Source: a bacterium (GTDB taxonomy: Bacteria > Actinomycetota > Coriobacteriia > Coriobacteriales > QAMH01). From it: DNA of 64,000 nucleotides. This document shows positions 15,967-38,754 of the stretch, in pieces. Each line of letters begins with the position of its first letter. The stretch's first letter is position 1. Below the pieces are notes generated by a model. The model worked only from the letters and a program-made list of their open reading frames with translations, made no database searches and was not told the origin of the DNA. The position numbers and the translations under genes were made by a program. The stretch spans positions 58,492-122,491 of the forward strand of contig CAVIIZ010000003.1 of the NCBI GenBank assembly GCA_963642995.1. The letters run 5' to 3'.

Positions 15967-17388
15967 ATGCGGTTGCCTTGCGCACATAGGGCGGCGGGGG
16001 GAAAGGGCGTGCGCGCCCGTTTCCGCGCGGCGTTTCGCGTGGGTCTCGCGCTCGTCTTGGCCTGCGCGTTCTCGCTGCCGCCGGTTGCCGCCCACGCCGC
16101 AAAGGACAGCTCGTCTGCCACGGCGGCGCAAAAGGAAGGCTCCGCGGGCTCGGCGAAGGACCCCACGGCCAAAAAGGGCGGCGCGGATTCCCCGGCGTCT
16201 GATCCGGCGTCTGAAACGGAGGGAGAAGGCGCGACGGGCGGCGCCGAGGAGGCGGGAGACGCGCGGCAATCCCCGGATGCGGCCGGTGCGGACGGCGCGC
16301 AGCCCGAGGCGCAGGAAAGCGTGCAAGAACAGCTCTCCGACGACATGCCCGCCGAGGAGCGCGAGGCCAAGCTCAAGGCGGAGGCCGAGAGCCTGAAGGG
16401 CAAGGCCGACCAGGCCGCGTCGCGCCTGACCGAGCTGGCGGGCAGCTTGGAGACTTCCTACGAGGACCTCAACCAGGTGAACCGCGACCTTGCCGACACT
16501 CAAAACGAGATCGCGGCCCTGGAGCAAAAGCTCGACGAGACCAAAAAGCGCCTCGACGAGGCGAAGACCGCGCTGGGCGCCACGGCAAAGGAGATGTATC
16601 GCACGGGCGGAGAGAGCAGCTTCATCTCCGTGCTGCTGGGCTCGACGGACTTCGACGCCTTCGTCTCGAACGCCTTCTTGCTGGGCAAGGTGGCAAGCGG
16701 CTGGGAGAGCGTCATCAACGAGGCCGGCGAGCTGTCGCGCGCCTACGCCAACCAGAAAAACCTGCTGTCCACGGCGCAGAAAAAGCAAAGCGCCCTGCAG
16801 CTGGAGGCCACGAAGAAAGGCGTCGCCGTCGCGTTGGCCATGTCGGACCAGTCGACGCTGCTGGAAAACCTCGACTCGTCCACGCTGGAGAAGGCCCGCG
16901 AGCTCGACGGGGTCACGGGTGGCAACTACGCGGCCTCCGTCGGCACGCACACGGGCGCCATCTCGGACGCCTTGTCGGCAAGCGAGAGCTGGTACAGCAA
17001 CGCGGGCGACTCCACCAGCAGGGAGGGGTCGCACCCGGCCGCCGTCGAGATAGCGCGCCGGTATCTGGGCGTGCCCTATGTGTGGGCCGGCGCCTCGCCC
17101 TCCGGCGGCTTTGACTGCTCGGGGCTGGTGCTCTACGTCTACGCGCAGCTCGGCATCGACTTGCCGCATTTCGCCCGCTCCCAATACGAGTGCGGCCAGC
17201 ACATCGCCTACAGCGCCCTCATGCCGGGCGACCTCGTGTTTTTCGGCAGCAGCGTCGAGACCATCCACCATGTGGGCATCTACATCGGCGACGGCCAGTT
17301 CATCCACGCGCCGCAGACCGGCGACGTGGTGAAGATCTCGAACCTCTCGGCCAGAAGCGACCTCATAGGCGCGTGCCGCCCGTTCTAG
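15967..17388 (+). CDS. Secreted coiled-coil NlpC/P60 peptidoglycan endopeptidase (CwlO/RipA/PcsB-like architecture)
   Basis: Signal-peptide-like N-terminus, long coiled coil (LNQVNRDLADTQNEIAALEQKLDETKKRLDEAK), C-terminal NlpC/P60 domain (YVWAGASPSGGFDCSGLV...HHVGIYIGDG). Confidence 0.9.
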   Translation: MRLPCAHRAAGGKGVRARFRAAFRVGLALVLACAFSLPPVAAHAAKDSSSATAAQKEGSAGSAKDPTAKKGGADSPASDPASETEGEGATGGAEEAGDARQSPDAAGADGAQPEAQESVQEQLSDDMPAEEREAKLKAEAESLKGKADQAASRLTELAGSLETSYEDLNQVNRDLADTQNEIAALEQKLDETKKRLDEAKTALGATAKEMYRTGGESSFISVLLGSTDFDAFVSNAFLLGKVASGWESVINEAGELSRAYANQKNLLSTAQKKQSALQLEATKKGVAVALAMSDQSTLLENLDSSTLEKARELDGVTGGNYAASVGTHTGAISDALSASESWYSNAGDSTSREGSHPAAVEIARRYLGVPYVWAGASPSGGFDCSGLVLYVYAQLGIDLPHFARSQYECGQHIAYSALMPGDLVFFGSSVETIHHVGIYIGDGQFIHAPQTGDVVKISNLSARSDLIGACRPF

Positions 17389-17477
17389 GGCCTGCGCCGC
17401 GCCCGCCGTCCGGCTCCCGCGTCCTTTCGCCGCTCCTTGCACCTGCCCTCTTTCGCGCCGCCCGCCTTTCGCGCCCC

Positions 17478-17506
17478 TTGCAAAAACCCGGCTTTGCGCC
17501 TAGGGT
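17478..17506 (+). promoter_or_regulatory. Putative promoter TTGCAA - 17 nt - TAGGGT for the second NlpC/P60 gene
   Basis: Hexamers at 17478-17483 and 17501-17506 in the 176-nt intergenic gap. Confidence 0.45.
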
Positions 17507-17512
17507 GGAGGA

Positions 17513-17535
17513 CATGCGAAAATGATTTTCACATG
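17513..17535. promoter_or_regulatory. 23-bp near-perfect palindrome CATGCGAAAAT-G-ATTTTCACATG (Zur/Fur-family-like operator)
   Basis: 11-1-11 inverted repeat with one mismatch. The core CGAAAATGATTTTCA matches 14 of 15 positions of the actinobacterial Zur box TGAAAATNATTTTCA as I recall it. It lies just downstream of the putative -10 and 30 nt before the ATG at 17565. Confidence 0.5.
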
Positions 17536-17564
17536 CAGTGCGCCCATGTCACGGAGGCGACGAG

Positions 17565-18833
17565 ATGCAAAAAACGCGACCGCACGTCCCGACCCGCATG
17601 CCCCACGCGCGCCACCTGCTTGGGGGCGCGTTCGCGTATAGGGCTCGTTTGCTGGTGAAACGGGGCGCTGCGCTTGCCTGCGCCGCGGTCTTGGCCGCCA
17701 CGCTCGCTCCGTCTGTCTCCTTCGCCGACCCCGATGCCGCGGCAAACGCCGACGGCGCCGGCCAAGACGCGGTGGAGGCGGCGGCGCAAAAACTCGCCCA
17801 GCTCTCCTCGCAGGCAGAGTCGGCCGCCGTCGCGCTCGCCTCCATAGAAAGCCGCATCGAGTCGACGAAAACCGAGATAGAGAGCACGCAAAGCGAGATC
17901 GCGGCAAAACGCGAGGAGCTGCAAGGCGCGAAGGCAAACCTCGGCGCCACGGTGCAAGAGGCCTACAAGAACGGCAGCGTGTCGTATCTGTCCGTGCTGC
18001 TCGACTCCGCAAGCTTCGAGGAGTTCTCCACGCGCTTCTACATGTTCTCCAAGATAGCGGCAAAGCGCGCCGACACCATCCAGACGGTCACCACCTTGGC
18101 AGAAGACCTCGAGAACGCCGAGGGGCGGCTTTCGGCCTCCCTCGACGAGCAGCAGCAGCTGAAGGTGCAGGCCGCCTCGAAGAAGACGGCCGCAGAGGAA
18201 AGCGTCGCCCGGCAGCAGGCCATCTTCGACAGCCTGACCGAGGAGCAAAAAGAGGCGGTGAACGCGCGCAACGACGTCGTTGCCCTGGATGCGGGCGCGA
18301 CGGACGGCGCGGAGCGCAGCGTCCAAGGCGCGCAAGACGCCGACGCAGGCGGTGCGCAGGACAGCTGGGTTGCGCCCGCCCCGCAGCAGGAGACCCATGT
18401 CGCGCCGGCTCCTTCCCATGACGAGGCGGCAGATGCCGGCGGCTCGGATGCGGGGTCTGCTTCGGGGTCCGGCTCGGGGTCGGGCGGCGGCCAGGCGGCG
18501 GTGGACGTGGCCTTGGGGTATCTGGGCGTGCCCTATGTGTGGGGCGGCACCACGCCGTCCGGCTTCGATTGCTCCGGGCTCATGCAATATTGCTTCAGGC
18601 AGGTGGGCATCTCCATCAGCCGCGTCTCCTCGAGCCAGTACTACGACGGCACCCCCGTCTCGCGCTCGGACCTGCAGCCGGGCGACATGGTCTTTTTCGG
18701 CAGCGACATCCATCACGTCGGCATGTACATAGGCGACGGCCTCTACGTGCACGCCCCGCGCACGGGCGATGTGGTGAAGGTGTCGAGCCTGTCTTCGCGG
18801 GGCGACTACTTCGGCGCCTGCCGCGTCTGGTGA
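17565..18833 (+). CDS. Secreted coiled-coil NlpC/P60 peptidoglycan endopeptidase (paralog of 15967..17388)
   Basis: GGAGG 7 nt upstream of the ATG. Coiled coil (IESRIESTKTEIESTQSEIAAKREELQ). C-terminal YVWGGTTPSGFDCSGLM...HHVGMYIGDG. Confidence 0.9.
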   Translation: MQKTRPHVPTRMPHARHLLGGAFAYRARLLVKRGAALACAAVLAATLAPSVSFADPDAAANADGAGQDAVEAAAQKLAQLSSQAESAAVALASIESRIESTKTEIESTQSEIAAKREELQGAKANLGATVQEAYKNGSVSYLSVLLDSASFEEFSTRFYMFSKIAAKRADTIQTVTTLAEDLENAEGRLSASLDEQQQLKVQAASKKTAAEESVARQQAIFDSLTEEQKEAVNARNDVVALDAGATDGAERSVQGAQDADAGGAQDSWVAPAPQQETHVAPAPSHDEAADAGGSDAGSASGSGSGSGGGQAAVDVALGYLGVPYVWGGTTPSGFDCSGLMQYCFRQVGISISRVSSSQYYDGTPVSRSDLQPGDMVFFGSDIHHVGMYIGDGLYVHAPRTGDVVKVSSLSSRGDYFGACRVW

Positions 18834-31174: not shown

Positions 31175-31714
31175 ATGCCCGCCTTCGACTTCGAGTCGCT
31201 CATCGCCGAAATTCCCGACTACCCCGAACCCGGCGTCACCTTCAAAGACATCACCCCCCTCGTCGCCGACGCGCAAGGCTTTGCCGCCGTCGTCGATGCG
31301 ATCGCCGGGCACTTCTCCGATTGCGGCGTGACGAAGGTGGTGGGCGCCGAGGCGCGCGGCTTTCTGGTAGGCGCGCCCGTGGCCGCGAAGCTGGGCGCCG
31401 GCTTCGTGCCCGCCCGCAAGCCTGGCAAGCTTCCGCGCGCCACCTTCACCCAGTCCTACGAGCTGGAATACGGGCACACCTCGCTGGAGATGCACGCCGA
31501 CGCCATGGGGCCGGGGGATGTGGCCTTGGTGGTCGACGACCTCATCGCCACGGGGGGCACGGCGCTGGCCTGCGTGAAGCTCGTCGCCCAAAGCGGCGCG
31601 CGCCTCGCCGGCCTGGGCTTTCTGCTGGAGCTCGTGCCCTTCAAAGCGCGCGAGCAGATGGCGAAGGTCACGGACGCGGAGTTTTTCAGCCTCGTCCAAG
31701 TCGAGGACTACTAG
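31175..31714 (+). CDS. apt: Adenine phosphoribosyltransferase
   Basis: YPEPGVTFKDITPL, and the VALVVDDLIATGGT PRPP-binding motif. Confidence 0.94.
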   Translation: MPAFDFESLIAEIPDYPEPGVTFKDITPLVADAQGFAAVVDAIAGHFSDCGVTKVVGAEARGFLVGAPVAAKLGAGFVPARKPGKLPRATFTQSYELEYGHTSLEMHADAMGPGDVALVVDDLIATGGTALACVKLVAQSGARLAGLGFLLELVPFKAREQMAKVTDAEFFSLVQVEDY

Positions 31715-31807
31715 GAAAGCCGCGAAGGCGCGCTGCGCATTTGCGCATTCGCGTCCGCCGGGAAACGCCCGCAACCGCAGCCCGCGTCCGCAAGTGAGGA
31801 GAGCCCC

Positions 31808-32479
31808 ATGGCCCGCAAGAAGAAGTTCGACTATTTCGACGCGTTCGTCCAGATCAGCGCCCATGCCGTGACCTATGCCGAGGAAATGGTCAAGTGGCTC
31901 GAGTACAACTACGAGGAGGGCGCCGCCGGAAAAGTGGGCAAGGTCGAGGGGTCGCTCAAAGCCTACGAGAAGTTCCACGCCATCGAGGAGGCCTCCGACG
32001 AGATCACCCACGAGATCTCGTCCAATCTGGTCAGCGAGTTCGTCACCCCCATCGAGCGCGAGGACATACTCGCGCTGGCAGGCGAGCTCGACAGCGTCGT
32101 CGACCACATCGACGAGGTCTTGCAGCGCATGTACATGTACAACGTGAAGAACGTCTCGCGCGAGGTCGTGGACATGGCCAACATCGTGCTCGAGGCCACG
32201 CGGGCCTTGCACGCGGCCTGCGAGCACTTCGCCGACTACAAGCAGCCGGGCGCCTTGCGCGAGTGGATCGTGAAGGTCAACGACTACGAGGACGCGGGCG
32301 ATCACGCCTATATCCGCAGCATGCACGAGCTGTACAAGCGCGCCGAGGAATCCGACGACCCGAACACGAAGATCGACGCCTTCGGCATGGGCGGCGTGCT
32401 GTCTGCGCTGGAGAACTGCTGCGATTGCGCCGAGGACGCCGGGGACACCATGCTCATGGTCATCATGAAGAACTCCTAG
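31808..32479 (+). CDS. DUF47-family (PhoU-like, TIGR00153-type) protein
   Basis: KKFDYFDAF...HAIEEASDEITHEI...TPIEREDILALAGELDSVVDHI, the typical DUF47 helical repeat. No PiT transporter gene follows. Confidence 0.8.
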   Translation: MARKKKFDYFDAFVQISAHAVTYAEEMVKWLEYNYEEGAAGKVGKVEGSLKAYEKFHAIEEASDEITHEISSNLVSEFVTPIEREDILALAGELDSVVDHIDEVLQRMYMYNVKNVSREVVDMANIVLEATRALHAACEHFADYKQPGALREWIVKVNDYEDAGDHAYIRSMHELYKRAEESDDPNTKIDAFGMGGVLSALENCCDCAEDAGDTMLMVIMKNS

Positions 32480-32515
32480 CATCCGGTGCAGGAAAAGGTA
32501 GTGGGAAGGGCCGGC

Positions 32516-34558
32516 ATGTCGGAAATCGAGAAGATGGATTTGGAGTCGAAAGACTTGGTTGCCGAGCGCATAGAGCAGCTGAGGCAGCTGCTGCCCGAGG
32601 CGTTCGGCGAAGACGGCATCGACTTCGAGAAGCTGCGCCTGCTGCTGGGCGACGAGGTCGAAGATGGATCGGAGCGCTACGCCTTCACGTGGCCCGGCAA
32701 AATGAACGCCATCCGCCAATCGCAGACGCCGAGCACGGCGACGCTGCGTCCAAACGTGGAGAAGTCCCGTGGCCGCGACGGCGAAGACGGCAGCTTCGAC
32801 TCCGACAACATCTACATTGAGGGTGATAACCTTGAGGCGATGAAGCTGTTGTTGCGTGCATACCACGCTTCGTTCGATTTGATTTATTTCGATCCCCCGT
32901 ACAACACCGGAAAAGATTTTATTTATCCTGATACTTTCGGAGATTCTATTGCGAATTACAAACAGCAAGCTGGTCTAATTGGGCAGTCGAATGCACCCAC
33001 TGCTGGCCGTTTCCACTCCTCTTGGTGTACGACCCTATACCCGCGCTTACGGCTTGCTAGAGAGTTGCTTTCCGATACTGGCGCATTGGTTATCAGCATC
33101 GGGGTACAAGAGATTGAAAATCTTCTAAGGCTCTGTGGCGAAATATTTCCCGACAAACAGGTTGTTCCAATCACTGTTCAGACATCCGGAGGTAAGCCTT
33201 CAGGTGGATTCAATCTCTTGCATGAGTACCTTTTGTTTGTAGTTGATGAGGAATTTCAAGCCAATCGAATTAGCCGTTTTGGCGGTGCGCAGAGGAGCCC
33301 GTTCGAAGGTCTTCCTCTGAGTACGTTTAACAAGATTCAGCGCCCTAATCAAGCATATCCCATTTTTATCAACCCAGATACTCTGACTATTGCAGGTGTA
33401 GGAAAGTCGCTAGCGGAGAGAATCAACGACGGGTCGTATCAAGGCATCAAAGGCGACTTTAAATATGATTTTACCGAGGCGCCTTCTGGCACTATTGCGA
33501 TTTGGCCTTATACGGCAAAAGGAAAAGAGTGCATTTGGCGATTGAAGCCTGACCGCTTGTTGTCTGACTGGGAGAAAGGCTATATAAAAGTCTCTTCCAA
33601 CGTTTATGACTCATGCCCTAACGCTTTTAGCCTTCAGTACCTTCCTGATGGAGTAATTAAAAAGGTCGAGAGTGGGCAGCTTCCTGTTGTCGGAGTTGAG
33701 GCAAATGGCAAAACGTTAGTTTTTGGTGAAAACAAAACAGCAGGCGCGCAAATTCCATCAATGCTTGCTGAAAAGGACTATCAAACAGTAAAAGGAACAA
33801 GCCAGCTTAAAGATTTATTTGGCACCGATCAGTCGCCATTTGATTATCCAAAACCTCTTGATCTAATCAAAGACATAATTGGCCTTACGACGACCGATTG
33901 CGCCCGAGTGCTTGATTTTTATTCAGGGTCTGCAACTACGGCGCATGCCTGTATGGTGACGGATTTTGAAAATTCCGAAAATCGACACTGGGTAATGATG
34001 CAGCTTCCGAGCGCCTGCGACCCTGATTCTCCAGCAGCCTCTATGGGGTTTGAGAACATATGCCAGGCAGGTGAACAACGAATTCGATTAGCTGGTGAAG
34101 ATTTAATTGGTTTATGCGAAGAAGCCAACCGTCAACCCAAGCTTAACGAGGAGCCTAAGCAGCTTCCAGATATCGGCTTCCGCGTGTTCGAGCTCGACGA
34201 ATCAGGCATCGAAAAACCTGAGCCTGGCAAGCTTGTGCTCGACGTCGTGAAGCCCGACCGCTCCGAGCTCGATATCGTCTTCGAGATGATGCTGAAGTGG
34301 GGTCTGGAGCTCACGTTGCCCGTGGAGAAAACCGAGGCAGCGGGCTATCCCATCTGGTCCGTTGACCACGACGAGCTCATCTGCTGCATGAAACGCGGCC
34401 TTACCACACAGACGTTTGAGGCCATCGCCGAAATGGAGCCGCGCCGCGTGCTCATCTTGGACTCCGTGCTCGACGACACGTTGAAGCTCAACGCCGTGCA
34501 GATCTTCAAGCACGCGCAGGAGCGCTGCGGCCACGAGATCGAATTGAGGACGCTCTAG
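32516..34558 (+). CDS. mod: Type III restriction-modification system methyltransferase subunit (Mod), beta-class N6-adenine type
   Basis: Motif IV FDPPYNTG precedes the variable region, and motif I-like VLDFYSGSATTAHA follows (beta order). C-terminus FRVFELDESG... is typical of Type III Mod. Central ~1.3 kb is markedly lower in GC. Start ATG 32516 (alternative GTG 32486). Confidence 0.9.
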   Translation: MSEIEKMDLESKDLVAERIEQLRQLLPEAFGEDGIDFEKLRLLLGDEVEDGSERYAFTWPGKMNAIRQSQTPSTATLRPNVEKSRGRDGEDGSFDSDNIYIEGDNLEAMKLLLRAYHASFDLIYFDPPYNTGKDFIYPDTFGDSIANYKQQAGLIGQSNAPTAGRFHSSWCTTLYPRLRLARELLSDTGALVISIGVQEIENLLRLCGEIFPDKQVVPITVQTSGGKPSGGFNLLHEYLLFVVDEEFQANRISRFGGAQRSPFEGLPLSTFNKIQRPNQAYPIFINPDTLTIAGVGKSLAERINDGSYQGIKGDFKYDFTEAPSGTIAIWPYTAKGKECIWRLKPDRLLSDWEKGYIKVSSNVYDSCPNAFSLQYLPDGVIKKVESGQLPVVGVEANGKTLVFGENKTAGAQIPSMLAEKDYQTVKGTSQLKDLFGTDQSPFDYPKPLDLIKDIIGLTTTDCARVLDFYSGSATTAHACMVTDFENSENRHWVMMQLPSACDPDSPAASMGFENICQAGEQRIRLAGEDLIGLCEEANRQPKLNEEPKQLPDIGFRVFELDESGIEKPEPGKLVLDVVKPDRSELDIVFEMMLKWGLELTLPVEKTEAAGYPIWSVDHDELICCMKRGLTTQTFEAIAEMEPRRVLILDSVLDDTLKLNAVQIFKHAQERCGHEIELRTL

Positions 34559-34590
34559 CGGGCGGGAGCGGACGCGATTGCAAGAGGGTC

Positions 34591-34599
34591 TGTTAGAAT
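34591..34599 (+). promoter_or_regulatory. Possible internal extended -10 promoter (TGTTAGAAT) in the mod-antitoxin gap
   Basis: The only AT-rich hexamer in the 83-nt gap, 43 nt upstream of the antitoxin ATG. No good -35 at 17-nt spacing. Confidence 0.3.
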
Positions 34600-34641
34600 G
34601 TGGGAAAGTTGGAAATTTCAAGTGCTGAGAGGCTGCGAAAG

Positions 34642-34884
34642 ATGGTTGCAACGTTGAAAGCGAAGTCGCAGGTGACGATCCCCGCAAACGTCGTCAGGGA
34701 AGCAGGGCTTCGGACAGGCGACGCATTCGACGTCGTCTACAGGGACGGGAGCATCGTGCTGACCCCGGTCGTGTACGTCTCGAGAAAGGACGCCGAGGCG
34801 CTCGGGTTTGCGCAGGACATGGACGCGCGCTACGAGCGGATGCTCCAAGGCGACCATATCCGGCACGACCTTGTCGAAGGGTAG
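34642..34884 (+). CDS. AbrB/MazE/SpoVT-fold type II antitoxin
   Basis: SQVTIPANVVREAGLRTGDAFDVVYRDGSIVLTPV is a swapped-hairpin AbrB-type signature. It lies immediately upstream of a toxin gene. Alternative start GTG 34600. Confidence 0.8.
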   Translation: MVATLKAKSQVTIPANVVREAGLRTGDAFDVVYRDGSIVLTPVVYVSRKDAEALGFAQDMDARYERMLQGDHIRHDLVEG

Positions 34885-34889
34885 GCGGG

Positions 34890-35147
34890 ATGGAGCTGCA
34901 ATGGTCGCCTGAAGCCTGGGACGAGTACCTGTCGTGGCGGACGGAGGACAGGAAGACGCTGAAGCGCATAAACGCCTGTGTCAAATCGATTCAGCGGGAC
35001 GGAAAGCCAATCGGAAAATCCGAGCTGCTCAAAGGGTCGAGACACGGGCTGCGCAGCGTGCGCATCGACGCGAGGAACCGGCTGGTCTACAAAATCGACG
35101 AGCATGTCGTGAGGATAGTTTCCTGCAGGGGGCGCTACGATGGCTAG
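34890..35147 (+). CDS. yoeB: YoeB/Txe-family type II toxin (ribosome-dependent mRNA interferase family)
   Basis: 85 aa, colinear with my memory of E. coli YoeB (WSPEAWDEYLSW...KRIN..V..I.R....GKSELLK...RSVRI...NRLVYKI....V.IVSCR.RY). The stop TAG overlaps the res start. Confidence 0.82.
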   Translation: MELQWSPEAWDEYLSWRTEDRKTLKRINACVKSIQRDGKPIGKSELLKGSRHGLRSVRIDARNRLVYKIDEHVVRIVSCRGRYDG

Positions 35148-38100
35148 CGGAAAGCTCGAGTTCAAATTCTCGTCGGACCAGCGCCACCAGACCGAGGCCA
35201 TCGAGGCCACCTGCAACCTGTTCAAGGGGCAACAGTTCATCAGCAGCTCGTTCACTGCCGCTACCTACAAGGGCGAGGGGCTCTTTGCTGATGGCGAAGT
35301 CCTGAGCGTCGGCCACGGCAACGACGTGCGCGTGACGCCCGGGCAGCTGTTGGAGAACCTGCACGCCGTGCAGGAGGACAACTGCCTGCCGCCCACCGAC
35401 GAGCTCACCGACGGGCGCCTGCGCGATTTCACCATCGAGATGGAGACGGGCACGGGCAAGACCTATGTCTACATCCGCAGCATCTACGAGCTGAATCGCC
35501 GCTACGGCCTCACCAAGTTCGTCATCGTGGTGCCCAGCATCGCCATCCGCGAGGGCGTGCTGAAGAGCTTCCAGACCATGAAGAAGCACTTCGACACGCT
35601 CTACGACAACACGCCGCTCGACTATTTCGTGTACGACTCGAAGGACATGGGGCCTGTCGGCAACTTCGCCACGTCCAGCTCCATCCAGGTGATGGTCATC
35701 AACATCGACGCCTTCAACAAGGGTCTGGACAAGGACGGCACGGCCAAGGAGGGCAACCTGTTCCACCGTGCCAGCGAGAAGCTTGTCGGCGGACGCAGCC
35801 CGCGCGAGCTGGTGAGCGAGTGCAAGCCCATCGTCATCATCGACGAGCCGCAAAGCGTCGACAACACCAAGCAGGCCAAGGCCGCCATCAAGAGCCTGAG
35901 CCCGCTGTTCGTGCTGCGCTACTCGGCCACGCACAAGACGGCCTACAACATGATCTACCGCCTCACGCCCGTGGACGCCTTCGAGCGCAACCTGGTCAAG
36001 GGCATCTGCGTGGACTCCGTCAGGGCCGACACCGACCTGAACGGCGCCTACGTGCGATTGGAGTCCGTGAAGGCCAACCCCTTCAGCGCGAAGCTCACCA
36101 TCGACGTGCGCCGGGCCGACGGCACGCAAAAGCGCAAGGCCGTCGCCGTGAAGACCGGCGCCGACCTCTACGAGAAGAGCAACGAGAACACCGACTACGA
36201 GGCCGGTTGGATCGTGAGCAACATAGGCACCGCCGCGGGCGACGAGTTCGTCGAGTTCCAAAACGGGGAGGTGCTCGAGCTGGGCGAGGCTTTGGGCGAC
36301 GTTGCCGATGAGGCCGTGAAGCGCGCGCAGATCCGCCGCACCATCGAGAATCACCTGGCCCGCCAGCTCGAGCTGTGGCCGCGCGGCGTGAAGGTGCTGA
36401 GCCTGTTCTTCGTCGACCGGGTGGACAAGTACCGCGTCTACGAGCCCGAGGTCCACGGCGGCGAATACGCGCAGGTCTTCGAGGGCGAATATGCCGACCT
36501 GCTTGAGACGAAGGCGCCGAGGCGCGTCGCCAAGGCCGCGGGCCTGGGCAAGGGCACGTGGCGCGAGTGCTACGAGGCTGTGGGTGCGCCGTTGGTGCGC
36601 GACCCTTCCGCCGTGCACCAGGGCTACTTCGCAAAAGACAAGAAGGGCAAGTTCAAGGACTCCAAGGGCGCGGCCGGCACTGCAGACGATGCGGGCGCGT
36701 TCGAGCTGATCATGCAGAAGAAGGAGACGCTCGTCTCCTTTCCGGACGGCAAGGACGCCGACAAGGACGTGTCGTTCATCTTCAGCCACTCCGCGCTCAA
36801 GGAGGGCTGGGACAACCCCAACGTCTTTCAAATCTGCACGCTGGTGGAGACCAAAGACACCCTCACCAAACGCCAGAAAATCGGCCGCGGCCTGCGCCTG
36901 TGCGTGAACCAAGACGGCGAGCGCCTGCACGATCCGGAGGCCAACGTGCTCACCGTCATCGCCAACGAAAGCTATGAGGAATTCGCCAACGGCCTGCAAA
37001 AGGAGCTCGAGGCCGAGGATTTCAGGTTCGGCATCATCACGCCCGAAAGCTTCACCAAAGTCGTCATCGAGGACGAGAGCGGCAACGAGCAGCGCTTGGG
37101 CTACGAGCGTTCCAGGCAGGTGTACGACCATTTCGTGGCCACCGGCATGGTGGACTCCAAGGGCGCGGTGAAGCCCGGGCTGAAGACCGCCGCGCAGGAG
37201 GGCAGGGTCGAGCTTCCCGAGGAGCTTGCGGCGGCCAAGGAGGCCGTCGAGGCCATCATCATCCACAAGTCGCAGAAAGTGCCCATCCGCGACAAGAAGC
37301 AGGAGGTCTCGGTCGAGCTGCAGAAGGACGTCACGCTGCACCCGGCGTTCCAGGAACTGTGGAACCGCATCCGCCAGCGCACGCGCTTCGAGGTGGAGGT
37401 GGACTCCGACAAGCTCGTCGAGCAGAGCATCGAGGCCATCGACGGCATGTTGAAGGTCACGCGCCCGAAGATTTCAAGCGAGCGCGCCGACCTCGACGTG
37501 AGCGATGCGGGCGTGACCGCCGAGGGCACGGGGACCTCCTCCATCAACATCGCGAGCGCGGTCGACTACGACCTGCCCGACCCGATTGCCGAGCTGCAAG
37601 ACGCCGTGGGCCTCACGCGCGCGACGCTGAAGGCCATCTTGGAGGGCTGCAGCCGTTTCGACGAGTTCAAGGTGAACCCGGCGACGTTTCTGGCGCAGGT
37701 GGGCGAGAAGATCGACAAGGTGAAGACGAGCCTTATCGCCAGAGGCGTCAAGTACGTGCGCCTGCCCGAGGACGAGTGGTACACCATGAGCGACCTGGAG
37801 CTGGACGACTTCACCGCGTACCTGGGCCAAAACGCCTGGAAGCCCGAGGTGTCCGACAAGAGTCTGTACAACTACGTCGTCTACGATTCCGCAGGCGTCG
37901 AGCGCTCGTTTGCCGAGGCCCTCGACAAACAAGACGAGGTGCTGGTGTTCGCCAAGCTGCCCTCGTCGTTCAAAATCGACACGCCGCTTGGCAGCTACAA
38001 CCCCGACTGGGCCTACGTCGAGGAGACAGACGGCGAGCACCGTGTCTACTTCGTCACCGAGACCAAGGGCGGCAAAAACGGAGAGCCCAACCTGCGCGAC

Positions 38101-38208
38101 GCCGAGAAGCTGAAAATCGAGTGTGCCGAGAAGCACTTCGAGGCGCTGGGCCTCGAGGATTTCGAGTACAAGGTGCGCACAACGTACCGTTTTGCGCGTG
38201 TCGTCTAG
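35140..38208 (+). CDS. res: Type III restriction endonuclease subunit (Res), SF2 helicase + PD-(D/E)xK nuclease
   Basis: N-terminus F.F....HQ..AIEA..NLF as in EcoP15I Res. METGTGKTYVY (motif I), VIIDEPQSV (motif II). C-terminal YNPDWAYVEE...YFVTETKG nuclease-like motif. Confidence 0.92.
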   Translation: MASGKLEFKFSSDQRHQTEAIEATCNLFKGQQFISSSFTAATYKGEGLFADGEVLSVGHGNDVRVTPGQLLENLHAVQEDNCLPPTDELTDGRLRDFTIEMETGTGKTYVYIRSIYELNRRYGLTKFVIVVPSIAIREGVLKSFQTMKKHFDTLYDNTPLDYFVYDSKDMGPVGNFATSSSIQVMVINIDAFNKGLDKDGTAKEGNLFHRASEKLVGGRSPRELVSECKPIVIIDEPQSVDNTKQAKAAIKSLSPLFVLRYSATHKTAYNMIYRLTPVDAFERNLVKGICVDSVRADTDLNGAYVRLESVKANPFSAKLTIDVRRADGTQKRKAVAVKTGADLYEKSNENTDYEAGWIVSNIGTAAGDEFVEFQNGEVLELGEALGDVADEAVKRAQIRRTIENHLARQLELWPRGVKVLSLFFVDRVDKYRVYEPEVHGGEYAQVFEGEYADLLETKAPRRVAKAAGLGKGTWRECYEAVGAPLVRDPSAVHQGYFAKDKKGKFKDSKGAAGTADDAGAFELIMQKKETLVSFPDGKDADKDVSFIFSHSALKEGWDNPNVFQICTLVETKDTLTKRQKIGRGLRLCVNQDGERLHDPEANVLTVIANESYEEFANGLQKELEAEDFRFGIITPESFTKVVIEDESGNEQRLGYERSRQVYDHFVATGMVDSKGAVKPGLKTAAQEGRVELPEELAAAKEAVEAIIIHKSQKVPIRDKKQEVSVELQKDVTLHPAFQELWNRIRQRTRFEVEVDSDKLVEQSIEAIDGMLKVTRPKISSERADLDVSDAGVTAEGTGTSSINIASAVDYDLPDPIAELQDAVGLTRATLKAILEGCSRFDEFKVNPATFLAQVGEKIDKVKTSLIARGVKYVRLPEDEWYTMSDLELDDFTAYLGQNAWKPEVSDKSLYNYVVYDSAGVERSFAEALDKQDEVLVFAKLPSSFKIDTPLGSYNPDWAYVEETDGEHRVYFVTETKGGKNGEPNLRDAEKLKIECAEKHFEALGLEDFEYKVRTTYRFARVV

Positions 38209-38322
38209 AGTTCAACGGCTCCGTCGCCGTCAGGTTTGCGGCTGTTTCAACCTCGTAAAAGGCACGCGGACATGTCCATCCGCGCGCCTCCATGCAATTC
38301 TTAACCATCTATGAGTGTCAAC

Positions 38323-38547
38323 CTAAAATAATCGAAAGCGCCAGCTTGTCGAAGGGGTTTTCGCGGCCGCTTCTTGAAGAAGCTCTGCCCAATCTTCACC
38401 GAAGCTCGCGTAGAGTTTCTTTAGGGTGTTAAAACCTTCCTCGTCAATCCAGCTGAACTCGTCTGGGTCGTAGCGGTCGAGCTCGTAAATATATTCGGGT
38501 AGCAGCTCGATTACGCGGTCCGACCAATCATCCCAATTTCACAGCAT
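38323..38547 (-). pseudogene. Decayed small acidic ORF (ATG-CTG-TGA, then 71 open codons), low GC
   Basis: Minus-strand frame reads M L stop NWDDWSDRVIELLPEYIYELDRYDPDEFSWIDEEGFNTLKKLYASFGEDWAELLQEAAAKTPSTSWRFRLF stop. No in-frame ATG/GTG/TTG after the TGA. A sampled 60-nt line gives 28/60 G+C against about 40/60 in neighbours. Confidence 0.45.
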
Positions 38548-38665
38548 GCACCTCGGCGCGGTTGCGTTTTCGTGGCTTTCTCGGCATGCACGTGGGCGCA
38601 CGTGTCCATCTACGCTACAATCGAGCGCTGTGCGCACCGTGGAAGCGGTGCCTTTTCGCGCATAT

Positions 38666-38754
38666 GCGGGCGTGGCGGAACTGGCAGACGCGCCGGGTTT
38701 AGGTCCCGGTGGGCATCGTGTCCCGTGAAGGTTCAAATCCTTTCGCCCGTACCA
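38666..38754 (+). tRNA. tRNA-Leu (anticodon TAG), type II
   Basis: Hand-folded: acceptor GCGGGCG/CGCCCGT (G1.U72), anticodon arm CCGGG-TTTAGGT-CCCGG, long variable arm, T-arm GAAGG-TTCAAAT-CCTTT, encoded ACCA. Confidence 0.88.

Follow-up and report, generated by a model that had tools for sequence, protein, structure and literature searches.

A mosaic Type III mod gene with a low-GC center in a high-GC member of the Coriobacteriia

The restriction-modification locus and its neighborhood

Type III restriction-modification systems recognize a short asymmetric site, methylate one strand, and cleave in an ATP-dependent manner when two inversely oriented unmethylated sites are available. The 64,000-nucleotide stretch of DNA analyzed here, referred to as the window, carries what its genes indicate to be a chromosomal Type III system of an uncultured, gut-type actinobacterium of high GC within the Coriobacteriia, in the gene order mod, a MazE/YoeB pair, and res. 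The mod gene (32516 to 34558, plus strand) encodes a methyltransferase subunit of 680 residues from the ATG at 32516 and matches PF01555 (2.8e-19), PADLOC MTase_III (1e-127, residues 5 to 668), and the EcoP15I Mod subunit (4ZCF, 1.2e-37). An in-frame GTG at 32486 would extend the protein to 690 residues; homologues begin at the methionine of MSEIEK. The res gene (35140 to 38208, plus strand) encodes a restriction subunit of 1,022 residues with an SF2 ATPase and a C-terminal endonuclease (PADLOC REase_III, 4e-301), assigned to PF04851 (ResIII) at residues 16 to 265 and to PF19778 (RE_endonuc) at residues 907 to 1012. Both genes lie on one strand and in the expected order, and the 581 nt between them hold the toxin-antitoxin pair; 36 of 71 family loci have inserts of more than 200 nt at this position. 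The pair consists of a MazE/AbrB-type antitoxin gene (34642 to 34884, plus strand; PF04014, 4.9e-9) and a YoeB-family toxin gene (34890 to 35147, plus strand; PF06769, 3.7e-21), the end of which overlaps the start of res by 8 nt. The antitoxin ORF has an alternative start at a GTG at 34600, and an 80-residue gene call on another contig, L173, maps to 34642; L173 also carries an exact match to the YoeB protein.

The locus sits among pgk-tpiA-gpmI-secG-apt and tig-clpP-clpX-valS, with a DUF47/PhoU_div gene upstream. A tRNA-Leu(tag) gene (38666 to 38754, plus strand) bounds the variable locus on its downstream side and is followed by tig-clpP-clpX-valS. Synteny with the relatives L090 and L091 starts at ∼38555 to 38607; in L091 it continues at 85 to 92% nucleotide identity over tig to valS and beyond. 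The L091 contig ends in the same res gene at the same site, its last 0.7 kb being 88% identical at the nucleotide level, which is near the housekeeping divergence. Among the relatives found through ValS, L090 carries a different gene at this site and L092 is too short, and none of the three provides a same-genus mod allele there. A scan of GTDB genomes with the family alignment gave neither the window's own genome nor a same-genus mod among the matches listed, the nearest named loci among them belonging to Collinsella and to Coriobacteriales MAGs. An integrase is present at the related locus L001; none occurs among the flanking genes examined in the window, and a mobile-element context for the window locus is unsupported.

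Mod is laid out as a beta-class amino-methyltransferase, its recognition domain preceded by motif IV (DPPY) and followed by motif I. The catalytic motif IV occupies residues 126 to 129 (32891 to 32902, plus strand) and is invariant in a 25-sequence alignment; the AdoMet-binding motif I, FYSGS within LDFYSGSATTAHA, occupies residues 468 to 472 (33917 to 33931, plus strand). Between them, residues ∼200 to 440 (33113 to 33835, plus strand) form the target-recognition region, which is hypervariable in the family and flanked by stretches that align to the methyltransferase lobes of EcoP15I. The domain order is that of the EcoP15I Mod2Res1 complex (4ZCF, PMC4490356), namely, an N-terminal domain, an N lobe with DPPY, the recognition domain, a C lobe, and a C-terminal domain; window residues 17 to 243 and 427 to 525 align to EcoP15I residues 16 to 248 and 399 to 497. 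The window Res, like that of EcoP15I, combines an SF2 ATPase with a C-terminal nuclease. EcoP15I is only distantly related (E = 1e-37, with parts of the protein aligned), and in the window, unlike in EcoP15I, a toxin-antitoxin pair splits mod and res.

Closer relatives form a Type III family within the Coriobacteriia (L001 to L006 and L087 to L089, with named matches in Ellagibacter and Slackia). The window resembles these loci in its Mod arms (72 to 89% identity) and in its Res (82 to 88% identity to L087, L001, and L089), and it shares its recognition-domain class with L001, L003, and L005. It differs in lacking the SNF2-like helicase and DUF4391 genes that stand upstream in the family, in having the DUF47/PhoU_div gene in that place, and in the MazE/YoeB insert.

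Composition and similarity switch at the same two places

A preliminary description of the window had claimed, from hand counts of 60-nt lines, that GC content falls within mod near 32820 and recovers near 34160. The counts (27/60 at 33181, 27/60 at 33361, and 40/60 at 32581) were exact, and the drop and return were found both in windowed GC and in a fit to third codon positions. Windows of 300 nt gave a GC content of 0.42 to 0.49 over 32800 to 34100 versus 0.60 to 0.63 on either side, and the patch is the sole stretch longer than 600 nt with a GC content under 0.54 in the 64-kb window (mean, ∼0.67). Borders were fitted by a two-changepoint likelihood on third codon positions, with 2-log-unit intervals and 100 codon shuffles as a control. 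They fell after nt 32855 (32813 to 32909) and 34172 (34136 to 34241), within ∼35 nt of those claimed; the log-likelihood gain was 61.9, and the maximum among the shuffles was 9.6.

The fit divides mod into a host-like 5′ arm of ∼113 codons (32516 to 32854, plus strand; GC3, 0.83), which holds the N-terminal dimerization domain and the start of the methyltransferase domain, a low-GC, apparently foreign block of ∼1.3 kb (32855 to 34171, plus strand; GC, 0.459), and a host-like 3′ arm of ∼128 codons (34172 to 34558, plus strand; GC3, 0.85), which holds the C-terminal domain. GC3 is 0.84 in the two flanks together and 0.417 in the block; it is 0.88 to 0.92 in eleven host genes, including res (0.91), and ∼0.79 to 0.82 in the toxin-antitoxin pair. 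The earlier statements that the ends of mod, the toxin-antitoxin pair, and res are all GC-rich, and that motif IV, the variable region, and motif I all fall inside the block, were thus borne out.

Similarity to relatives changes where composition does. Nucleotide identity to L087 is 78 to 88% up to ∼32830, drops to 57 to 67% and then to ∼40%, and returns to 82 to 91% from ∼34136; BLAST homology to L087, L088, and L089 restarts at exactly 34117. We conclude that mod is a true mosaic, in which composition and similarity switch at the same two places. At the protein level, the N arm (first ∼105 codons), the C arm (last ∼135), and Res are 87, 89, and 88% identical to those of L087, versus 27% for the recognition domain. 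L001, by comparison, is 77% identical in the recognition domain, 67% in the motif-IV segment, and 50% in the motif-I segment. Center and flanks, compared separately as had been proposed, accordingly have different nearest relatives: L087 for the arms and res, and other alleles, at 61 to 77% amino acid identity, for the center. The reading frame and all motifs are intact across both junctions.

The family as a whole is modular, with N and C arms that are 72 to 89% identical across hundreds of alleles around centers of 380 to 460 residues that are 34 to 50% identical. Recognition regions are 15 to 29% identical between classes and 67 to 77% identical between the window and L001, L003, and L005, which carry the window's class in other high-GC scaffolds. 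The limits of low GC differ from locus to locus, at codons ∼170 to 520 in L001, ∼110 to 510 in L003, and ∼1 to 560 in L005, and these appear to be independent events. The same kind of mosaic is found in separate samples (L001/L002 and L003/L004). The motif-IV segment of the window allele is the most divergent among 120 family proteins (median identity, 64%, where the family median is 88%; identity to its best match, 70%), and the replaced block therefore goes beyond the recognition domain and takes in sequence of both methyltransferase lobes; it reaches further into them than do the blocks of the Coriobacteriia family. The proposal that the whole catalytic core had been replaced holds for both motifs and for the recognition domain between them, but ∼45 residues of the methyltransferase domain, delimited by homology to EcoP15I Mod, were retained.

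Base composition across the Type III mod family

Of 83 family loci from different phyla, 77 have a recognition domain with GC3 below that of the arms (mean difference, −0.22; Wilcoxon p = 9e-15), and in 65 of 67 loci it is below that of res, hosts of already low GC included. In every GC class the values descend from the arms through the motif-IV segment and the motif-I segment to the recognition domain. Recognition-domain GC3 follows host GC (slope, 0.46; r = 0.70), and the window value of 0.41 compares with 0.455 predicted by the family regression on flank GC3, so that no special event is needed for this part of the signal. The same-class alleles, which are synonymously saturated, have GC3 values of 0.41 to 0.51 where res is at 0.81 to 0.93. 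The only unusual feature of the window allele is the extension of low GC over motifs IV and I, where its GC3 deficits are −0.33 (rank 2 of 83 loci) and −0.44 (rank 1), respectively.

These comparisons bear on how low GC is to be read. It had been taken as the mark of a single event, and this did not survive the comparison: lower values are found in the 77 loci mentioned above, and in other hosts of high GC the nearest alleles of the same class are low in GC too. An ancient composition had been expected to show as a low-GC core in all relatives together with a uniform phylogenetic signal along the gene; low GC proved common, but the signal is not uniform. The low-GC center thus cannot be taken as the sign of one recent event, since low GC is the norm for any allele of the family, and a low-GC recognition domain on its own is no evidence of recent transfer. 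Tentatively, we raise the possibility of a general and largely unreported rule by which synonymous GC grades from the arms down to the recognition domain in bacterial phyla and some archaea, the specificity domains standing at a composition equilibrium of their own. Recognition domains might pass through a gene pool common to the phylum more quickly than they ameliorate; alternatively, being unable to recombine, they might escape a GC-enriching force to which the recombining arms are exposed. If such a rule were true, low GC would be no clock for recent transfer in these genes.

Probable exchange of the mod center and competing explanations

Allele replacement is the probable origin of the mosaic, homologous recombination having exchanged the center of mod (∼32855 to 34171) within a Type III system that was already resident, in the manner of modA. 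The crossovers would have fallen inside regions conserved across the mod family, and the donor of the incoming segment would have been a mod gene from a lineage in which synonymous GC is much lower. Such an import would start just 5′ of motif IV, take in the target-recognition domain, and stop where the C-terminal methyltransferase lobe ends, leaving the N-terminal dimerization domain, the C-terminal Res-contacting domain, and res in place. We infer homologous recombination as the mechanism, a resident scaffold with an imported center as the direction, and a change of specificity as the outcome. The res gene of L091, at the same site and similar in divergence to the housekeeping genes, suggests that the scaffold is the resident part. 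More distant relatives of the center (44 to 54% amino acid identity) come from loci with GC contents of 0.31 to 0.59 (median, 0.46) and have centers of 0.33 to 0.48; the window block is at 0.46.

The preliminary description had called the import recent. The mosaic is supported, whereas its recency is not: no donor of the center was found in a 5.8-billion protein set, JGI metagenomes, plasmids, IMG/VR, or GenBank phages, where the best matches reached 61 to 69% amino acid identity over the full center and 77% over the recognition domain, the partial protein P0014 being at 76%. Protein, genome, metagenome, plasmid, and viral searches likewise gave no copy of the block at >95% nucleotide identity in another flank context, the best being 77% in amino acids (∼70% in nucleotides). 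Between the window and its same-class relatives, 0.30 of four-fold sites are identical, which is saturation, and the evidence on recency and direction of the exchange therefore comes only from composition and synteny.

A steady state of composition would require no datable import. The synonymous sites of mod centers would stay AT-rich whatever the host, by continual turnover through a shared lower-GC pool or because the centers are too divergent to recombine and so miss the GC enrichment that recombination and selection bring to the conserved arms, and the patch in the window would be a local case of the family gradient. The deficit relative to arms and res, the presence of the gradient in every GC class with the window on the host-GC line, and the GC3 range held by saturated same-class alleles in high-GC hosts are all consistent with this. 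It leaves unexplained, however, the extreme GC3 deficits of the motif-IV and motif-I segments, the standing of the motif-IV segment as an outlier at the protein level, and the sharp borders that match the similarity breakpoints. We consider it unlikely as the explanation of the mosaic, and it is compatible with allele replacement rather than exclusive of it. The exchange could also have run in reverse, a mostly low-GC mod having come first and both of its ends having been converted later by a resident high-GC mod-res scaffold. Alleles of the required kind exist, as L005/P0003 shows, with low GC over codons ∼1 to 560 (segment GC3, 0.53/0.49/0.46/0.49/0.67) beside a high-GC res (0.81). But this order of events requires two conversion tracts plus a host-like res, and the res at this site is common to L091 at housekeeping-level divergence; it seems to us improbable, and its end product and functional meaning would be the same mosaic.

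Two artifactual or intragenomic origins carry still less weight. In an assembly chimera, the mod genes of two organisms would have been joined in silico within conserved regions. The junctions do lie in family-conserved sequence, and the sole independent contig of the strain, L173, which is 99.93% identical over 34542 to 35969, begins at 34542, 17 nt before the mod stop and 3′ of both junctions. On the other hand, the arms are only 78 to 91% identical in nucleotides to their closest known relatives and the GC3 change is abrupt, so that parents of high and of low GC are unlikely to have had long k-mers in common; both junctions keep the frame and all motifs, and like mosaics occur in separate samples (L001/L002 and L003/L004). 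We regard a chimera as very improbable. To amino acid composition or intragenomic cassette switching we give practically no credence. Amino acid composition was rejected as the cause of low GC because the shift sits at GC3 (0.84 to 0.42), whereas GC2 stays in a similar range, ∼0.23 to 0.62, along the whole gene. Devices such as shufflons, phase variation, or movement of domains from silent copies are indeed used by Type I systems, and by some of Type III, to change specificity (PMC7394358). In the window, however, the 64 kb contain no second mod-like sequence that could serve as a silent cassette, the block borders show no significant direct or inverted repeats, and none of the flanking genes examined encodes a recombinase, so that a shufflon, a silent cassette, and site-specific recombination were rejected. 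Tandem Repeats Finder (score threshold, 30; 31500 to 38500) gave no phase-variation repeat tract in or before mod, its two hits being trivial arrays of 2 to 2.5 copies outside a coding phase-variation context.

[quoted passage not shown] Recognition domains of modA are replaced en bloc by crossovers in conserved flanks and are lower in GC (PMC3311624; PMC1557822), the central region of modA12 being at 28% GC versus 40% in its flanks; en bloc replacement via conserved flanks, mosaic flanks, and a center below its flanks in GC are common to both cases. The window gene differs in several respects. It has no simple-sequence repeat tract and is therefore not a phase-variable regulator, and a phasevarion was rejected. 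The GC3 contrast (0.84 versus 0.42) is far larger because the host, one of the Coriobacteriia, is high in GC, and the replaced block spans motifs IV and I rather than the recognition domain alone. Copies at >95% identity in another context, which Gawthorne 2012 used as direct proof, were found for modA and not, in the searches above, for the window block.

Exchange of the Mod center is a real but already well-known route of specificity change, and the window locus is a very clean, high-contrast case of modular Type III Mod evolution, because its host is so GC-rich. It suggests that crossovers can fall beyond the limits of the recognition domain, so that both catalytic lobes travel with it, while the dimerization and Res-contacting domains stay with res. 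The preliminary description had held that the parts of Mod likely to contact Res were kept. This applies to the C-terminal domain, with which EcoP15I Mod contacts Res (PMC4490356), but not to the methyltransferase domain, which also contacts Res there and was replaced.

In Type III systems the recognition domain of Mod sets the site for methylation and restriction alike, so one exchange would re-target the whole system. The specificity of the window system is probably set by the exchanged module, and its methylation motif would therefore be predictable from the class of L001, L003, and L005 and not from the closest full-length relatives.

Composition and similarity along mod

The sole long ORF at the low-GC patch, 32486/32516-34558 (+), is mod, whose product is a Type III Mod (PF01555; PADLOC MTase_III, 1e-127, residues 5-668; EcoP15I Mod 4ZCF, 1.2e-37). 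Recounting G+C per 60 nt gave 27 at 33181, 27 at 33361, and 40 at 32581, identical to the hand counts of the preliminary description. In 300-nt windows, GC is 0.42-0.49 between 32800 and 34100 versus 0.60-0.63 on both sides; the mean for the 64-kb window is ∼0.67, and no second patch of >600 nt with GC <0.54 occurs in it. The intergenic stretch at 38.2-38.6 kb is its sole further spot below 0.54. GC at third codon positions (GC3) runs along the ORF from 0.80-0.90 through 0.30-0.50 to 0.8-0.97, a shift that rules out amino-acid composition as the cause of the low GC. A two-changepoint likelihood fit on GC3, with codon shuffles as the control, placed the 5' border after nt 32855 (support 32813-32909) and the 3' border after nt 34172 (34136-34241), with GC3 of 0.417 within the block and 0.84 outside; the log-likelihood gain was 61.9, against ≤9.6 for the shuffles. 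Eleven host genes, res among them, have GC3 of 0.88-0.92. Motif IV (DPPY; starts 32891, +) and motif I (starts 33917, +) both lie within the block, so that windowed GC, the GC3 fit, and motif positions bear out the low-GC patch first described at 32820-34160.

The best full-length Mod homologues share only 73% identity. Segment-wise BLAST revealed a modular family: hundreds of alleles share 72-89% identity over the first 105 and last 135 residues, yet their centres are only 34-50% identical and differ in length. Nucleotide identity to the relative locus L087 is 78-88% up to ∼32830, falls to 57-67% and then ∼40%, and is 82-91% from ∼34136; BLAST homology to L087, L088, and L089 restarts at exactly 34117, and res is 88% identical to that of L087. 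Amino acid identities for the N arm, motif-IV segment, recognition domain, motif-I segment, C arm, and Res, respectively, are 87, 62, 27, 44, 89, and 88% to L087; 75, 67, 77, 50, 84, and 82% to L001; and 65, 68, 71, 60, 61, and 62% to L005. Since the segment identities differ in this way, the arms and res go with one scaffold, and the centre goes with another allele class; separate BLAST of centre and flanks, as initially proposed, likewise gave different nearest relatives for each. We conclude that mod is a mosaic, in which the shifts in composition and in similarity coincide at both borders.

Extent of the replaced block

Residues 106-199, through motif IV, are 71-93% identical among relatives with unlike recognition domains, but those of the window are only 62-69% identical to the same relatives. 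Of 120 family proteins, none has a motif-IV segment with a lower median identity than the window's (64%, where the family median is 88%) or a poorer best match (70%). The GC3 deficit relative to the arms is the largest among 83 loci for the motif-I segment (-0.44) and the second largest for the motif-IV segment (-0.33). These extremes in identity and GC3 indicate that the replaced block takes in both catalytic lobes, as the preliminary description had it in proposing replacement of the whole catalytic core and recognition region.

Retained domains were assigned by mapping the EcoP15I limits (NTD, 14-60; MTase, 62-262 and 390-516; TRD, 263-384; CTD, 539-644; PMC4490356) through an alignment to 4ZCF, and comprise the N-terminal dimerisation domain, ∼45 residues of the methyltransferase domain, and the C-terminal domain. 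In EcoP15I ModA the C-terminal domain contacts Res, and so does the methyltransferase domain (PMC4490356). The idea that the parts contacting Res were kept thus holds for the C-terminal domain, but not for the methyltransferase domain, which was replaced.

Origin of the block

The middle of mod was probably exchanged by homologous-recombination allelic replacement, with crossovers in family-conserved sequence. The incoming segment would have brought a new recognition domain along with both methyltransferase lobes, and the dimerisation domain, the Res-contacting domain, and res would have stayed from the resident system. Mod's recognition domain guides both activities of a Type III enzyme, methylation and cleavage; on this established knowledge of the family, the exchange would have re-targeted the whole restriction system.

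A comparison of 83 non-redundant loci, which span many phyla of bacteria and include some archaea, bears on a different account, in which hypervariable centres simply hold a steady-state composition. Recognition-domain GC3 is below arm GC3 in 77 of the 83 (mean difference, -0.22; Wilcoxon p = 9e-15) and below res GC3 in 65 of 67, low-GC hosts included. Regression on arm GC3 (slope, 0.46; r = 0.70; 83 loci) predicts 0.455 for the window's recognition domain, where 0.41 is observed. Low GC in the recognition domain is therefore generic, the family norm, and a steady state accounts for this gradient; it leaves unexplained, however, the protein-level outlier segments of the window and the sharp, coincident borders, and we consider it doubtful as the full explanation. 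Conversion in the reverse direction is given very little weight. An assembly chimera is also unlikely: the arms are only 78-91% identical to their nearest known relatives, the GC3 change is abrupt, the reading frame is preserved, and similar mosaics come from separate samples. A contig from an independent run, L173 (1-1428; SRR13434666), is 99.93% identical to 34542-35969 and confirms the joins between the mod end, the toxin-antitoxin pair, and res, a span downstream of both mosaic borders. Cassette devices were rejected on the absence of repeats and silent copies: mod and the sequence before it lack simple-sequence repeats, the 64-kb window has no further mod-like sequence, and the block borders carry no meaningful repeat.

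The original description called the allelic replacement recent, for which the donor searches and synonymous sites gave no support. Matches to the centre do not exceed 61-69% in the protein collection (77% for the recognition domain; 76% for the partial protein P0014), 54% in JGI metagenomes, 32% among plasmids, 51% in IMG/VR, and 39% among phages, so that a donor is lacking in all five, and four-fold-degenerate sites are 30% identical to same-class relatives, i.e., saturated. What stands of the proposed import into a resident scaffold is the mosaic and its foreign catalytic-plus-recognition block. The closest same-class alleles also have low-GC centres; res GC3 in their hosts is 0.81-0.93, and the limits of the centres lie at codons ∼170-520 (L001), ∼110-510 (L003), and ∼1-560 (L005). 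Such unlike limits fit separate recombination events, each moving this allele class into a different high-GC scaffold. Ancient composition had been equated with a low-GC core in all relatives and a uniform phylogenetic signal; relatives do have the core, but the signal is not uniform. Distant relatives of the centre (44-54%) have locus GC of 0.31-0.59 (median, 0.46) and centre GC of 0.33-0.48, bracketing the 0.46 of the window block.

The same-class mod of L005 (3864-5894; P0003) is low-GC over almost its full length (segment GC3, 0.53/0.49/0.46/0.49/0.67; adjoining res, 0.81); identity of its N arm to those of the other loci compared is no higher than 57-65%. Of all genes found, this one most resembles a donor. 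Across the family (83 loci, L001-L089), motif-IV and motif-I segments are intermediate in the synonymous-GC gradient.

In Haemophilus and Neisseria, mod/modA has a hypervariable centre (28% GC in modA, versus 40% in its flanks) between conserved ends, a conserved res, and mosaic alleles, with en bloc replacement and homology reaching beyond the recognition domain (PMC1557822; PMC3311624). The window locus shows the same overall pattern and is probably a further case of this described allele exchange. It departs from modA in lacking a phase-variation tract, in its very GC-rich host, which sharpens the contrast to an unusual degree, and in a block that includes motifs IV and I; a fourth difference is that no near-identical copy of that block was found in the protein, metagenome, plasmid, viral, and phage searches. 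The locus itself is of modest significance; the family-wide synonymous-GC gradient is a lead of wider reach.

Probable resident scaffold and surroundings

Housekeeping genes surround the locus: pgk, tpiA, gpmI, secG, tRNA-Leu(gag), and apt lie upstream, together with a DUF47 gene, and tRNA-Leu(tag), tig, clpP, clpX, and valS downstream. ValS has a best match of ≤90% in the protein collection (named relatives: Coriobacteriales, 75%; Slackia, 69%), marking the host as a high-GC Coriobacteriia member that has been poorly sampled. The contig L091, which matches the window at 85-92% nucleotide identity from tig through valS and further on, opens with the final 0.7 kb of this res, located upstream of tRNA-Leu(tag) as in the window; the fragment is 88% identical, similar to housekeeping-gene divergence. 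Thus res is not new to the host lineage. L090 instead has an unrelated ATPase gene there (ATPase_2/DUF234, opposite strand), so that what precedes tRNA-Leu(tag)-tig varies between same-genus relatives (window 38209-38665; L090 1-2600; L091 1-1160). The relatives retrieved include no same-genus mod allele (L091 starts in res; L090 has the unrelated gene).

The DUF47/PhoU_div gene (31808-32479) precedes mod in the window. In the closest relatives, the position directly upstream of mod is taken by genes for an SNF2/ResIII-type helicase of 1081 aa and for a DUF4391 protein, both in the direction of mod and both absent here (coordinates noted: L001 3993-8008; L003 878-5695; L087 105-4120; L089 1172-5989); L003, L088, and L089 have an extra ORF of ∼260 aa, also absent from the window. 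In L001, the closest full-length relative, the system lies within an island adjoining clpP (coordinates noted, 14-613 and 17364-18043) that carries an HTH_17 gene, an OLD-family AAA/TOPRIM pair, a UvrD-like helicase, and NikA-like and integrase genes; the scaffold is therefore mobile in some hosts, although no integrase lies near the window's copy.

A MazE/AbrB-type antitoxin gene (34642-34884) and a YoeB toxin gene (34890-35147), whose last 8 nt overlap the start of res, separate mod from res (35140-38208; 1022 aa; ResIII and RE_endonuc domains; REase_III, 4e-301); counting the antitoxin region from 34600, the pair spans 34600-35147. In L001-L005 and L087-L089, the closest relatives, mod and res adjoin within a few nucleotides. 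The mod-res gap exceeds 200 nt, reaching 2 kb, in 36 of 71 family loci (L010, L017, L022, L027, L035, L041, L043, L047, L055, L059, L068, and L078 among them), and cargo insertion at this position seems common in the family; translation of the six largest gaps gave ORFs of ∼120-640 aa.
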